A DNA stretch of 64,000 nucleotides from an uncultured Verrucomicrobiae bacterium (GTDB lineage Bacteria; Verrucomicrobiota; Verrucomicrobiia; Chthoniobacterales; JAFAMB01), in NCBI GenBank assembly GCA_963762565.1, contig CAVXLD010000001.1:352001-416000 (forward strand), read 5' to 3'. Positions 29,666 through 47,900 of the stretch are shown piece by piece. The notes beneath the pieces were generated by a model. It was not told the DNA's origin and ran no database searches. It saw only the letters and a program-made list of their open reading frames with translations. The translations under genes were made by a program, and so were the position numbers. How positions within the stretch are numbered: the stretch's first letter is position 1; the number at the start of each line of letters is the position of its first letter.

Positions 29666-30772
29666 TTACGGGATTCTCAGAAAACCGTGATCGGCACCAT
29701 TGGAATCTATATAATATCCGCTGAGATCGCCTTCGAAGTTGAGACCGCCCGGAATAGTGCCCTGACCACTGCCCGTGCCTGCACCCGGTACGTCAAAGGT
29801 GGTGATGGAACCGTTCGGGTCGCGAATAAATCCGTGCGATACGCCGTTCGAATCGATATAGGGGCCCGAAACTACTCCCTTTAAATTGAAGACCTCAGGC
29901 AGCGTGCCTTGCCCCGCTGCTGTGCCGGCGCCGGGAACATCGAACTCGGTGATGCTGCCATCGGGAAAACGGATGTAGCCGTGACTGGCGCTATTCGAAT
30001 CATAGTACGGGCCAGGAATAAAGTACGCATCGTTGATGCCATCGGTATCTGTGCCTTGGAAGGGACCAGTACCCGCGCCAGGGGCGTCGATTACGACGAA
30101 GGTGCCGTCAGGTTGCCGAAAATGGCCGTGCAACACATTCTGATCATCGATTATGGCGCCGGCAATCGCACCCTCCACATTCAGGCCGGTGCCCGCTGCC
30201 GTGCCGGTACCCTGACCCGATCCCGTCCCCGCGCCTGGACCCTCGAAGCTCGTGAACGATCCAAAGGGCGACCGCAGAAATCCGTGTGCTCGCCCGCCCG
30301 AGTCGAAGTAATATCCGCCGATCTCTCCCCAGAGATTAATGTTGTAAGAAAGCGTCCCTATGTTACCTGCGCCGGTAGCCGCCCCCGGGGCATCGAAGGT
30401 GGTGACACTGCCATCGGCGGTGCGGATGAAACCATGGTTGACGCTGTTCGAGTCGAGGTAAACACCCGTTATCGTGCCGAAGACATTGATGCTGACCGGC
30501 TCTGTGCCTTGGCCAGTGCCGGTTCCCGCTCCGGAGACGTCGAACGTCGTGTAGTGTCCCGATCTGCTACGAATGAATCCGTGGGCGACGCCGCTAGAGT
30601 CAACGTAGTTTCCGAAAATCACGCGGGAGTCGGTCACGTTCTGTGGAAAGGTTCCTTGGCCTTTGCCAGTACCGGCCCCTGGTGCATCAATGGCGATATA
30701 CGTCTGTGCGTGGGCGATACCCATCGCCAGAAGGGAGATAAACCCTGGCATCCATAGTTGCTTTCGGTTCAT
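29666..30772 (-). CDS. Secreted seven-repeat beta-propeller-like protein (HAF-repeat-like)
   Basis: Signal peptide ending AHA; seven ~49-aa repeats FDxPGAGTGxGQGT...G.Y.D....HGF.R. Confidence 0.8.
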   Translation of the reverse strand: MNRKQLWMPGFISLLAMGIAHAQTYIAIDAPGAGTGKGQGTFPQNVTDSRVIFGNYVDSSGVAHGFIRSRSGHYTTFDVSGAGTGTGQGTEPVSINVFGTITGVYLDSNSVNHGFIRTADGSVTTFDAPGAATGAGNIGTLSYNINLWGEIGGYYFDSGGRAHGFLRSPFGSFTSFEGPGAGTGSGQGTGTAAGTGLNVEGAIAGAIIDDQNVLHGHFRQPDGTFVVIDAPGAGTGPFQGTDTDGINDAYFIPGPYYDSNSASHGYIRFPDGSITEFDVPGAGTAAGQGTLPEVFNLKGVVSGPYIDSNGVSHGFIRDPNGSITTFDVPGAGTGSGQGTIPGGLNFEGDLSGYYIDSNGADHGFLRIP

Positions 30773-32324: not shown

Positions 32325-33420
32325 ATGGAAAAGTTACTCATAACTCTTGTCGCTCTAGCTGTATCTGTTACGGCTTGTAAAGCGCAGATTAAGGCCCCAG
32401 TCGGCATTTTTAGCCTGACCAAAGGTGATGATGCCGAGGTCGCGAATGACCTGGGATGGACGAACAGCAACCTAAGCGGCGTAGCAGTGCGAGCTACATT
32501 CGCTTTTGTTAATAGCGGCGGCCCAGGGAGCTATACCTGGACTAATATCGATCACGCGCAAGGCGCCGCTGATAGAAACCATAAAGCTTGGGCGCTCAGC
32601 TTTGATGCGTCTCAAGCTCCCCCTTGGATCTATGGGTCGACCGGCAATGTCGCTCCGTTTAACTTGTACGACTCAACTACTCCATGTACTCAAGATGGGC
32701 AACAAATACCCGCCCCTTGGGACAACAATTTCCAGTCGATCTGGAGTGCGCTAGCGCAAGCTGCCGCTGCTCGGTACGGGAATGACCCATATCTTGCTTA
32801 CATCACCTTCAGCGGACTAGGGCAATCGGGTTGAATCGTACCTGGCGAAAAACTCTTGTGAAGACACGGAAGCTGATAACGATGGGTTCCCGGACGCTTG
32901 GATCACGGCTGCGCATACTATCATCGGAGACTGGATCGTGCCTTGGGGCCAAGGGTACGGGATTATTTGTTTTCTTGCGACCGGACAACCCACAACCGGG
33001 GATGGGACGACCACGATGACGACGGTGGCCAACTATGGTCTCAACCATTACCCGAATTACTTCGGGCTAAAATCGTGCGGTTTGGGTAATAATTATCCGA
33101 ACAACGGCTATTTCCCGCACACCACGATAGCCATCAGCGGAATCGGAGACAACACTTCCGGCTGCTGGGTGGTCTACCAGCTCGTTGGGACGGTTCAAGG
33201 CACACACGAATCACTCTATTCGATGCTGAGCAATGGCCTTGCTAACAACGCTAATGCGATCGAAGTGTACGCCGAAGACGCTAATGACCCTCAAAAGCAA
33301 ACCGTTGTTGCGGAGTTTAATCAGGACCTGATCACCGCTAGCGGCTACAGCTACTTAGAACGTACTAGGAAACTTTTGATCGCAAAGACGCAGCCAAAAT
33401 TAGAAAACAAAAGACACTAA
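32325..33420 (+). pseudogene. Secreted glycoside-hydrolase-like (GH42/clan-A TIM barrel-like) gene split by a 1-bp insertion near 32829
   Basis: Signal peptide; PPWIY, PAPWD, RYGNDP motifs; removing one G from TCGGGTTGAA gives continuous ...GLGQSVESYLAKN... joining ORF 32938-33420. Confidence 0.7.
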
Positions 33421-34620: not shown

Positions 34621-34784
34621 GGGACTTCATTTTAACACGAGAGCTACCCTCGAAGTCAAGTTTCGTCAAGAGCCTAGTGCGATTCACGATCAGACGCTTT
34701 AAGAGGGTTCGCCGGCCAGAAGCCGGCGATATCTCTTCTTGAGTAGCTTCTGTTTGCCTCTTTATGGTTTGCGCCAACCGAAGG

Positions 34785-36869
34785 CTATTTGGTGGTAAAT
34801 AGGAACCCGTTAAAGGTAGCACCACCTTTGTTAACACCGTATACGGAGAAGTGATACTGCTCCTTAGGAAGCAGGTCTTTGAAAGTAATGTTTGTTTCCT
34901 TCGTTACGAAGCATTCGAAGAAATCGTGCTGGGGGAGGAATAGGCCAATGACATAGCCGGTCGCCCGTTTGGCGCTCGTCCAATGGAAAGCTGCGGAAGT
35001 GTCCGTCAGAGTGGGGTCAAAAATCCTCGAGTAGCCGGGAGGCCTGCCACCGGTCACGGACGATAAGATTTGCACCCCAAATCCGCCGCCAAAAATCGTG
35101 CCGGCCCCGGTGCAATTATTGTAACCGAACCCGGCATTGTATCCAGGCGTGCCGTACATGCTGGAGTCGCCGTTCGTGCCATCAATGACTGAGTACAAGA
35201 GAGGACCGTTAACAATGTTGTCGGTGTTATAAAAAGTGGGATTGAAGAAGCCTAGCCTGTTACCGGTTACGTATTCGAGGCCGGCGTTTAGAATGCTGAT
35301 GTACCCAGCCCACAGGGGAGTCGAGACACCTGTTCCTCCCATCTGAAGCCAACCACCGTTCATCTTAGAGTAGGCGGCAACCCCGGTAAACGGGTCGCCG
35401 ACGGCCGCTACGTCCGGCACATTGCGATAGGTCGATGATCCGCCGTTGGTGGTTACATAGGATGGAGCCTGCCATGACGGGATTGGCCAATAAGAACTGA
35501 AACCACCTCCGCTGGCGCCTCCACCACTGAAGAGCCCGAGACGATCCCAGACCGCTTCAGCCAGGCGGACTTCATGCGGGCCGGTAGACAGATTAGTCGC
35601 GCCCACACAAGTCACCAATGGCTGTGCTCCTGGATCTGTAACTTCCAGTTGTGCTGGGTAAACCGAAGTCCCAGTTTGGCCATAGGCGCCGCCGTTACCG
35701 GAGCAAGCTAGAACCGTGATGCCTTGGGCGGCCAACTGAGTGAGCGCCGTGTTTTCAGCCGCGAGCTGGGAGTCGCCTTGCGTGACTTCGTCAAGTCCGT
35801 AAGAAATGCTGAGGATCGCCGCTTTATTATCTGATGCCACTTTATCTAACGCATCAATGAGCGCGACTGCGAAAGGATCGGTCCCATCTTCGTAGACCAG
35901 TACTTCTTTGACGCCTGGGTTAATACCGATAACCAGCTCGATATCCAGAACGGCTTGCAACTCGACACTAGCGTTGTTGCGATCAACGCTGCCGTTGTAT
36001 CCGTTAACGCCGACAAATTTTACCGGGCGGTTCGGCAATTGCATCCGCTCGAGGTATTTTTGAACATCGGATGGATAGAAACCATTCTGTTCAAAAACGG
36101 CAACGGTTTGGGGAGCAACATCCCCGAACTTTGGGATCTTGTAGACCGAACGTAGGTCCGAGGGGGAATAAGCTCCGCCGGGGCCAGTTCCACCAGCGGT
36201 GTCGGTCCCGATTTCTGGAGCGATTGGATCTTCGCCGAAGGCTTGATGGACTTTGGCAAGCGGGGCGTACTGAAGACTATTGGTTAGACCAATCACACCT
36301 GTCACCTTCGCGGCGATTGGATCCGGGATGGTCGGCTCAACGCTGGCAGAGTAGAATTCCTGGCCGTCTGGTGCCCGGTAATTGTTAAGCTGAGTCTTGA
36401 AAAGGGTTTGAAATTGGGCGGCTGGTCCTCGCACGGTTAAGAACGTCCGAGCCACGGATTCGTGGACAATGGCTATCCCGTTAGCGGCTGCCCACTCTTT
36501 TAAGGTGGCGTAGTCGCCGGCATCCGCACCATATCGTTCAGCGAACTCATTGGGGGTGATGTATTGACGATAGAGCGGATCTTTTGGATTGGAGACACGT
36601 TGAACAAATTCAGCAGCGCCTTTGCTGTCACTAAGGGGTAACGAAAGGATCACACTGATTTGCTTTTCCGGATCGACCGTTGAGAGCAACGTCGAAGTAG
36701 CCACCATCGGCGACAATTCAAGAGCAGCGGCTTTAGCCGCCAGACTGCCGGTTACCGACGTTAGCGACATCAGAGCACCGAGCGCTATACTGCCTAATCG
36801 ATGCCCGATGACATTTCCAAACAAACGAACCGGTGCGGTTCGCTCCTTCTTTGTAAATAAGCCGTCCAT
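34785..36869 (-). CDS. Sedolisin (S53) family protein with prodomain and FN3-like C-terminus, catalytic residues substituted
   Basis: Pro-kumamolisin-like prodomain (YRQYITPNEFAERYG), SISYG, RNVPDVAA; QAVLD, SGNGG, GGTGVS in place of ExxxD, SGDxG, GGTS. Confidence 0.85.
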   Translation of the reverse strand: MDGLFTKKERTAPVRLFGNVIGHRLGSIALGALMSLTSVTGSLAAKAAALELSPMVATSTLLSTVDPEKQISVILSLPLSDSKGAAEFVQRVSNPKDPLYRQYITPNEFAERYGADAGDYATLKEWAAANGIAIVHESVARTFLTVRGPAAQFQTLFKTQLNNYRAPDGQEFYSASVEPTIPDPIAAKVTGVIGLTNSLQYAPLAKVHQAFGEDPIAPEIGTDTAGGTGPGGAYSPSDLRSVYKIPKFGDVAPQTVAVFEQNGFYPSDVQKYLERMQLPNRPVKFVGVNGYNGSVDRNNASVELQAVLDIELVIGINPGVKEVLVYEDGTDPFAVALIDALDKVASDNKAAILSISYGLDEVTQGDSQLAAENTALTQLAAQGITVLACSGNGGAYGQTGTSVYPAQLEVTDPGAQPLVTCVGATNLSTGPHEVRLAEAVWDRLGLFSGGGASGGGFSSYWPIPSWQAPSYVTTNGGSSTYRNVPDVAAVGDPFTGVAAYSKMNGGWLQMGGTGVSTPLWAGYISILNAGLEYVTGNRLGFFNPTFYNTDNIVNGPLLYSVIDGTNGDSSMYGTPGYNAGFGYNNCTGAGTIFGGGFGVQILSSVTGGRPPGYSRIFDPTLTDTSAAFHWTSAKRATGYVIGLFLPQHDFFECFVTKETNITFKDLLPKEQYHFSVYGVNKGGATFNGFLFTTK

Positions 36870-37020
36870 ATTTTGTAGAATGCCCAGGCTTATCAGATCG
36901 GAGGGAGAAAATTCGGAAATGACATTTCTTTGGTAGTCGGATCTGCCCGGGGAAAACCTCGTCGTGTATCATTCAAAAAATGGCTAGACAAGACTTTTGG
37001 AAAGTTTTTTGCGTAGTCCG

Positions 37021-37364: not shown

Positions 37365-37780
37365 GGTCTTTTCAGGTATGCGGGTTCGACGAAAGCAATT
37401 AGCGCACACTCTTGTTGAAGCCGATTGCGAATCGACGAAACAGGGGGGCCGAAATGATTCATTGTAGGAATTGTTTCCTTTGGACTACGAGCCTCCGAAT
37501 TTGTCTCACGTCACTCATTAAGCAGGCCTGATGCCCAAATCCGCTCCCAGCCGGCCTAACCCCGTTCGCGTTGCAATTCGCCTCGGGAAATGAAGATCAA
37601 CTTTCTTTTACCGCTTATAATTTAGGCCTGAGCAGATGGAAGAAAGTTTCAAAATCGGAATCCAATTGTCCCAGTCTTGGAACGCCCGAGAAACGAGCGA
37701 CAGCCGGTAAGGCGATCCGCGACGATGAGGGGATCTACGAAGGATTCGCCGGCGGCAAGCCGGCCATATGCCTTCCTAGG

Positions 37781-38073
37781 TAGTGTCCTGTCCCATAAAT
37801 AACGTGGCTTTCGCCGGCGGTCAGTTGGCTGTTTTTCAAGGCGCGAGCGAAGCGCCCCTATCTGGTTCATACGGGTCGAGCGAGCAACGCGGAAAAACAG
37901 CCAACTGGCCACGGCCGGAGGGTTGCGATGAAAATGGGCCGGCGGCTGCGTTGCTCGTCGGTTACGTATCGATCAAGATATGCGCCCTCTACCGCCAGTC
38001 CGGCTCGGACCGCCTTGCCGGCGGCCCATTTTGATCGCAACGAAAGCCACGTTATTTATGGGACAGGACACTA
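37781..38073. mobile_element. MITE with perfect 33-bp terminal inverted repeats
   Basis: TAGTGTCCTGTCCCATAAATAACGTGGCTTTCG at 37781-37813, exact reverse complement at 38041-38073; internal hairpins; no transposase. Confidence 0.85.
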
Positions 38074-38119
38074 GCTTTCGCTTTGCATCCTTGCGGTTTG
38101 GCGTGAGGCTTTTCGTACT

Positions 38120-47625: not shown

Positions 47626-47900
47626 GTGGAGCGCTGCTTGCAAGGCCGAAGCGGTCGGCACTGTGGAGCGCGCCTTGCTTGCAAGGCCGAAGCGGTCGGC
47701 ACCGTGGAGCGCGCCTTGCTTGCAAGGCCGAAGCGGTCGGCACCGTGGAGCGCGCCCTGCTTGCAAGGCCGAAGCGGTCGGCACCGTGGAGCGCGCCCTG
47801 TTTGCAAGGCCGAAGCGGTCGGCACCGTGGAGCGCGCCTTGCTTGCAAGGCCGAAGCGGTCGGCACCGTGGAGCGCGCCCTGCTTGCAAGGCCGAAGCGG
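47626..47900. repeat. 41-bp tandem repeat array (7 cores, 6 full periods)
   Basis: TG(C/T)TTGCAAGGCCGAAGCGG at 47635, 47676, 47717, 47758, 47799, 47840, 47881; no spacers. Confidence 0.95.

Follow-up and report, generated by a model that had tools for sequence, protein, structure and literature searches.

The 64,000-nucleotide stretch of Verrucomicrobiae DNA analysed here (the window) encodes on its minus strand a 694-residue protein built like a sedolisin, the S53 family of peptidases, in which the catalytic Glu, the oxyanion Asp and the nucleophile Ser are all replaced. Its homologues and codon substitution patterns give good grounds for regarding it as a selected, non-catalytic protein. 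A plausible though still tentative role is that of a secreted sedolisin-fold protein that is kept in its pro-form and binds without cutting, probably through its fibronectin type III (FN3) domain and outer surface. The gene comprises the following parts.

34785..36869, minus strand: whole open reading frame (ORF), with signal region, prodomain, linker, pseudo-sedolisin domain and FN3 domain; 694 aa, frame open.
36726..36869, minus strand: likely signal peptide, residues ~1-48, from hydropathy and reading by eye.
36270..36722, minus strand: pro-kumamolisin-type prodomain, residues ~50-200 (PF09286 at 60-197, E = 8e-28).
36174..36269, minus strand: linker, residues 201-232, aligned to the pro-kumamolisin linker and kept across the dead clade described below.
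35055..36173, minus strand: sedolisin-fold domain, residues 233-605, without the Glu, oxyanion Asp and Ser; TM 0.81 to 1t1e.
34788..35054, minus strand: C-terminal FN3 domain, residues ~606-694 (PF00041, E = 2e-6).
34902..34946, minus strand: FN3 hairpin, residues 642-656, a candidate binding surface that is near-invariant in the dead clade and its intact sisters.

The Pfam matches are Pro-kuma_activ (60-197), Peptidase_S8 and fn3 (620-684), and the best solved relative by sequence is pro-kumamolisin 1t1e (phmmer, E = 8e-44). A predicted model of the protein (mean pLDDT 81, pTM 0.86, prodomain mostly above pLDDT 88) matches the same structure (Foldseek E = 9e-35, TM 0.81 by target length). Phmmer, Pfam, the predicted model and Foldseek together identify an S53 fold with a pro-kumamolisin-type prodomain. 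A first-pass annotation of this DNA had described an intact frame that retains the prodomain, the fold and an FN3-like tail, and the 694 open codons, the Pfam matches and the 1t1e alignment agree with that description. An atlas search with the FN3 part returned nothing beyond generic FN3 clusters. The N-terminus has a charged n-region, is hydrophobic from residue 28 and ends in an Ala-rich stretch (hydropathy, by eye), and the protein is likely to be secreted.

Four codons define the state of the active site.

35955..35957, minus strand: Gln305 (CAA) at the catalytic Glu (1t1e alignment).
35943..35945, minus strand: Asp309, the triad Asp, kept (1t1e alignment and homologue columns).
35694..35696, minus strand: Asn392 (AAC) at the oxyanion Asp (1t1e alignment).
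35328..35330, minus strand: Gly514 (GGT) at the nucleophile Ser (1t1e alignment).

In the phmmer alignment with 1t1e, QAVLD lies opposite EVELD, SGNGG lies opposite AGDSG, and GGTGVS falls on the nucleophile helix. The EXXXD motif, which in S53 peptidases holds the catalytic Glu and Asp (PMC7804941), reads Gln305-x3-Asp309 here; Asn392 occupies the place of the oxyanion-hole Asp, and Gly514 that of the nucleophile Ser of GXSXXXP. Judged by these residues, the protein does not belong among the active S53 peptidases. Close intact relatives have GAA, GAC/GAT and AGT at codons 305, 392 and 514, each one base away from the codon in the 694-aa ORF. The first-pass annotation had given the positions and codons of the three substitutions, and their single-base distance from the catalytic codons, correctly; its account is corrected here in that the fourth catalytic residue, Asp309, is retained.

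Two nearby residues had been named as possible stand-ins, the Glu of VELQ (Glu303) and the Ser of GVST (Ser516). Among the 120 homologues listed, 106 of the 108 intact proteins have Glu303 and 96 have Ser516. Residues common to nearly all intact enzymes are not replacements for those lost, and we rule out both. That other residues, such as Cys389 or Ser516, run a new or weak reaction is highly unlikely. Cys389 lies close to the oxyanion position in the sub-branch that contains the 694-aa ORF, and Asp309 and Glu260 are retained, but position 389 may be Cys, Ser or Thr within the dead clade, Glu303 and Ser516 are also present in intact enzymes, and none of the catalytic positions has become fixed for a new residue.

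The sequence GYNNCTG had been read as a degenerate Ca site, and this reading is not borne out. Positions 560 and 584, which we take to be Asp Ca ligands and placed through the 1t1e alignment, are Ser560 and Asn584 in the 694-aa ORF, and most intact family members also lack these Asp residues. At position 584, Asn occurs in 65 and Asp in only 20 of the 108 homologues that have all four catalytic residues. A change that is family-wide in intact homologues is rejected as part of the catalytic loss. Separately, Cys586 is invariant in much of the Verrucomicrobia-type family, intact enzymes included, while the acidic Ca-ligand positions are replaced; the Ca site of this family may have been remodelled. 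Covariation between Cys421 and Cys586, which could form a disulphide in place of Ca, is not clear.

The substitutions are not peculiar to one gene. A homologue search yielded 529 proteins, and the residue counts rest on the 120 that are listed: 108 of these are intact, and the remaining 12, which are not, all lie within the best 14 matches. Similarly substituted homologues, which the first-pass annotation had suggested looking for, thus exist as a 12-protein clade. This dead clade consists of the 694-aa ORF and 11 proteins 78-96% identical to it, none with an intact Thr-Ser nucleophile motif. It is nested among intact sisters of 76-83% identity (FastTree support 0.98 and 0.996, motif columns removed), and on the catalytic domain alone its UFBoot value is 72. 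One record, P0002, was excluded from the trees for an internal duplication in which both halves carry Gln, Asn and Gly (Q/N/G) at the three sites.

The lesions differ among members of the clade. Q/N/G occurs in the 694-aa ORF, P0003 and P0004, and Q/D/G in P0005. P0006, P0008-P0010 and P0014 combine Q with deletion of one residue of the Thr-Ser motif. In P0011, P0012 and P0015 the one-residue Thr-Ser deletion stands alone, and since Glu, both Asp residues and a Ser remain, this sub-branch may be only impaired and not fully dead. Within the 90% cluster of the 694-aa ORF, all 10 full-length members have Q/N/G, and sequencing error or a single mutation is rejected as its source. The other three records of this cluster are pieces from two loci that look broken (P0382 with P0386; P0384). 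Two of the 12 loci in this closest cluster are therefore apparently broken, either in reality or by assembly error, and broken copies of the same ambiguous kind are found among intact alleles too.

The genes have nevertheless remained under purifying selection. DNA was on hand for four dead genes and three close intact ones. Pairwise dN/dS among the four dead genes is 0.21-0.26 over codons 150-640 (upper bootstrap bounds <=0.35; dS 0.19-0.48). A codon branch model of the catalytic domain (codons 233-600; 363 codons from four dead and two intact sequences, one of the latter, L033, frameshifted) makes the shift in selection across the loss measurable, with dN/dS of 0.12 for intact branches, 0.57 for the stem and 0.29 for the dead clade. 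A value of 1 in the dead clade is rejected (LRT 97, p = 6e-23), and the branch of the 694-aa ORF itself has dN/dS 0.27 (p = 4e-7). The dead-clade value is about twice that of the intact sisters, and equality of the two is also rejected (p = 4e-5). The catalytic domains of the four dead genes have accumulated ~186 synonymous changes and contain no stop codons where ~7.6 would be expected under neutrality, a count that is biased because three of these genes were found via protein similarity. Contigs from soil run X7, an independent study, span positions 35060-36230 without a gap and contain a relative with 48 differences from the 694-aa ORF. Among the 40 of these differences that are listed there are 30 synonymous and 8 non-synonymous codons, with none at the three sites.

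Because neutrality is rejected and few changes are non-synonymous, the fold is evidently still selected, with a constraint looser than that of the enzyme. The 694-aa ORF has the marks of a pseudoprotease, catalytic residues lost in an open frame and purifying selection afterwards. The first-pass annotation had proposed a selected, non-catalytic protein in place of random decay, and it would have given this up for a dN/dS near 1 together with a lack of similarly substituted homologues. The substituted homologues and the values of 0.21-0.29 in dead genes, far below 1, support its proposal.

The looser constraint is concentrated near the former active site. A set of 97 distant intact homologues served to class the sites, and a tree of 12 dead and 11 intact sister sequences to count the changes. 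At catalytic-domain sites that are invariant in the family, the defining residues excluded, there are 27 changes in the dead clade versus 8 in the intact sisters; at variable sites the corresponding counts are 117 and 235 (Fisher p = 6e-7 for the invariant-versus-variable contrast). Of the 27 changes, 19 fall on the 50 sites within 6 residues of the cleft motifs, which leaves 8 for the other 78 sites; the cleft-motif positions are those we presume from the kumamolisin structure. Relaxed sites beside these motifs are positions 262, 311, 354, 389, 391, 424, 453 and 518, and S415A and T453S near the cleft are fixed or nearly so. Even so, 110 of the 133 invariant sites are unchanged in the dead clade, within which the rate of change at variable sites is six times that at invariant sites.

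Outside the catalytic domain, relaxation of the prodomain in the dead clade is not significant (p = 0.29). Linker residues 220-228 have no changes where 8.4 are expected; in pro-TPP1 the equivalent linker passes through the substrate groove (PMC2635056). FN3 residues 644-652, a region picked after a window scan, likewise have none where 7.6 are expected. Among dead and intact sister alleles the surrounding hairpin, 642-656, hardly varies, yet it differs greatly from paralogue to paralogue; since the intact sisters conserve this loop too, it is no gain of the dead clade. A loop at 551-557 that by eye seemed to have gained constraint in the dead clade was dropped, being absent from the top windows of the scan. 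Dead alleles also keep the signal-like N-terminus (hydropathy, by eye).

These patterns are most compatible with the bind-without-cutting role. Sedolisins cleave off their own prodomain, and an inactive kumamolisin mutant reportedly remains a precursor. For both reasons the exported protein, if its signal-like N-terminus functions as such, would be unable to remove its own prodomain, and the linker would then hold the cleft closed. With the linker staying over it, the cleft would be free to drift. The FN3 loop, common to the intact alleles, could recognise the same target as theirs, and the dead allele would then be a targeted protease reduced to binding, as an adhesin, scaffold or shield. The 694-aa ORF has likely been caught early in its divergence from the enzyme.

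The first-pass annotation had also offered a peptide-binding sensor or an inhibitor decoy, options that are weakened because the relaxation falls around the cleft. One form of this idea, in which trans cleavage of the linker by an active paralogue opens the dead cleft to trap peptides or protease inhibitors, is decidedly unlikely. It could draw on the conserved linker, on eight intact paralogues able to process the protein and on the known trans-activation of subtilases (PMC10580911), yet relaxed sites together with S415A and T453S crowd the cleft motifs, drift of a kind not expected if the cleft were selected to bind.

The same rates bear on whether the allele has any job at all. Selection against misfolding and recombination with intact alleles might suffice to preserve an activity-loss allele that is slowly on its way out. 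The different lesions of the sub-branches, the doubled dN/dS and the broken copies among dead and intact alleles would all fit, as would the Ser-to-Gly change, recurrent and one transition away, and the patchy, accessory distribution of the gene: out of 43 genomes of the taxonomic family, many of them incomplete, 5 have the protein family at E <= 1e-100. We nonetheless regard this explanation as unlikely, given the absence of stops over ~186 synonymous changes (subject to the bias noted above), the sixfold rate difference between variable and invariant sites, the retained upstream DNA and signal region, and the persistence of other dead lineages, such as a paralogous cluster typified by C7:103690 with Asn/Gly throughout its covered members.

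The dead and intact forms are recombining alleles of one gene. Residues 1-130 of the 694-aa ORF are 97-98% identical to those of an intact protein with four records (P0013, P0413, P0415 and P0417, from ENA, JGI and Logan); over the catalytic domain the identity to this protein falls to 79-81%. Trees of the N-terminal and FN3 parts mix dead and intact sequences, whereas the dead catalytic domains group together; catalytic domains have thus moved between gene backgrounds. This exchange with intact alleles makes conservation of the prodomain and FN3 a weaker test of selection after the loss than that of the catalytic domain, as prodomain and FN3 conservation may partly reflect time spent in active genes. 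Such matched natural pairs (97-98% identity over the first 130 residues, ~80% over the catalytic domain) make it possible to ask what stays when catalysis goes. The closest intact orthologue, L002:1501-3580 from a genome of the same genus (G004), has a frameshift in its FN3 directly after the conserved loop; two records (P0411 and P0412) support the frameshift, and P0020 reads through.

Loss of the nucleophile recurs in this family. The source genome assembly (G000; 6.1 Mb, 54% GC) has 11 full-length family copies, eight intact and three dead. Apart from the 694-aa ORF, the dead copies are C7:103690 (Asn and Gly) and C12:169396 (Thr for Glu, Glu for Ser).

G000 C7:103690-105798: dead paralogue, in tandem with an intact copy.
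G000 C12:169282-171402: dead paralogue, in tandem with an intact copy.

C7:103690 acquired both Asp-to-Asn and Ser-to-Gly independently of the 694-aa ORF, and its cluster of eight records has Asn/Gly in all that cover those sites. Among representatives at 50% identity, the Ser is missing in 4 of 42 from the core family versus 0 of 99 from distant S53 (p = 0.007, with kin that are not independent). Nine representatives gapped at the Glu column were left uncounted as alignment shifts in which the Ser is kept, and P0176 carries the nucleophile Ser. The family tree contains seven separate nucleophile losses, four of them Ser-to-Gly, one transition away; P0308, which is not placed on the tree, is a probable eighth. 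A genome of the same genus also has 11 copies, and none of the 10 with a readable nucleophile site has lost the Ser. Elsewhere in G000, C5:489559-489895 is a frameshifted fragment of another family member that preserves only the start of the prodomain.

With so many active copies at hand, the dead protein or its freed prodomain might act as a regulator that inhibits, chaperones or pairs with intact sedolisins. The eight intact copies beside three dead ones in G000, the tandem position of the other two dead copies and the constraint kept on the prodomain in the dead clade are consistent with this idea. Propeptides inhibit subtilases (PMC10580911), and the analogous Csp pseudoproteases, which work with CspB, dimerise (PMC12880746). 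We consider it fairly unlikely, however, for a gene that stands alone, whose nearest G000 paralogues are 58-59% identical and lack its FN3 loop. The same-genus genome, with no Ser loss in its 10 readable copies, implies that dead copies are not required, and the constraint covers the entire catalytic fold and not the prodomain alone.

Returning to a bind-only protein, the recurrence raises a broader possibility, which we hold as doubtful: a targeted-protease family of soil Verrucomicrobiota may repeatedly yield bind-only versions, with cutting and bind-only domains as exchangeable alleles and with each paralogue having its own FN3 recognition loop. If so, recombination would let a strain convert a targeted protease to an adhesin or shield, and the losses, at least seven of them independent and four of them Ser-to-Gly, would form a natural series for watching pseudoenzymes arise.

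Genomic context adds little on function. No gene neighbourhood of the 694-aa ORF is conserved across dead and intact alleles; a neighbour that we take to be PEP-carboxykinase-like is common to two dead alleles, and the other alleles differ. The bases directly upstream of the ORF are conserved in dead and intact alleles despite these different neighbours. Promoter and terminator scans gave counts not above those of shuffles. Among the 20 sequencing runs listed for this DNA, the best matches are soil metagenomes and none is an RNA run, which bears neither way on expression.

36870..37016, minus strand: ~150 bases upstream of the ORF, likely expression signals; 77% mean column identity in 6 sequences.
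34709..34729: GC-rich hairpin, 55 bases past the stop codon, a possible terminator or a dispersed palindrome, with a similar copy at 37741.

A pattern scan of the genome contigs found 53 stretches, none of them related to the 694-aa ORF. The window contains several other features. A MITE-like element of ~300 bases at 37778-38076 is bounded by 36-base inverted repeats (97% complementary) and has two further inverted repeats inside, and at 47634-47900, after a sugar ABC-transporter-like operon, a GC-rich unit of 41 bases is repeated 6.5 times in tandem with 96% matches. On the plus strand at 32325-33420 are two consecutive ORFs of 169 and 160 aa with no Pfam match, the first with a signal-like start; a frameshift near 32830 may have divided a single secreted gene into the two. 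On the minus strand at 29666-30772, a likely secreted protein of 368 aa with about six similar repeats and no Pfam match may be a beta-propeller.

Pseudoproteases are well known as a class, and pseudoenzymes are usually found long after the split from their enzymes. A natural bacterial pseudo-sedolisin, or any paper on the pro-S53-FN3 family, was not found in the largely open-access literature searched. The MEROPS lists, which lie beyond that literature, may well contain S53 homologues that are not peptidases, since a filter of fungal sedolisin homologues by catalytic hallmarks and structure is reported to retain only 204 of 230 (PMC6278154).

The solved S53 enzymes (pro-kumamolisin, kumamolisin-As, sedolisin and TPP1; MEROPS S53; PDB 1t1e, 1gt9, 1sio, 1ga4 and 3edy) resemble the 694-aa ORF in prodomain, linker, fold and triad Asp. 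The 694-aa ORF differs from them in the replaced Glu, oxyanion Asp and Ser and in its extra FN3 domain, and the second acidic Ca-ligand position is Asn in most of its family, intact members included. Its architecture is that of the pro-S53-FN3 proteins of soil Verrucomicrobiota, which are named 'subtilase family serine protease' or 'kumamolisin'. Unlike those enzymes, the dead clade lacks the nucleophile motif, yet its named members still carry protease labels, under which they would enter counts of soil nitrogen-cycling peptidases.

The closest analogue is the CspC/CspA system of Clostridioides difficile (family S8). Both have the subtilisin-clan fold and lost catalytic residues in nature while relatives stayed active; the Csp pseudoproteases do not autoprocess, and the same is predicted for the 694-aa ORF. 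CspC, which pairs with CspA (PMC12880746), has kept its prodomain and carries a Gly, G485, in place of the nucleophile (PMC7200643); the 694-aa ORF matches it in both respects. The 694-aa ORF is not of the Csp type, with its S53 fold, no peptidase neighbour and no conserved context: Csp proteins are S8 spore proteins encoded in an operon with active CspB, whereas the 694-aa ORF stands alone, is likely exported and bears an FN3 domain. The Csp pseudo-sites are also fixed across a bacterial family, whereas for the gene of the 694-aa ORF dead and intact alleles occur side by side and recombine. What is distinctive in the dead clade is this early stage, with the same architecture as the enzymes, recombining dead and intact alleles, and repeated origins.
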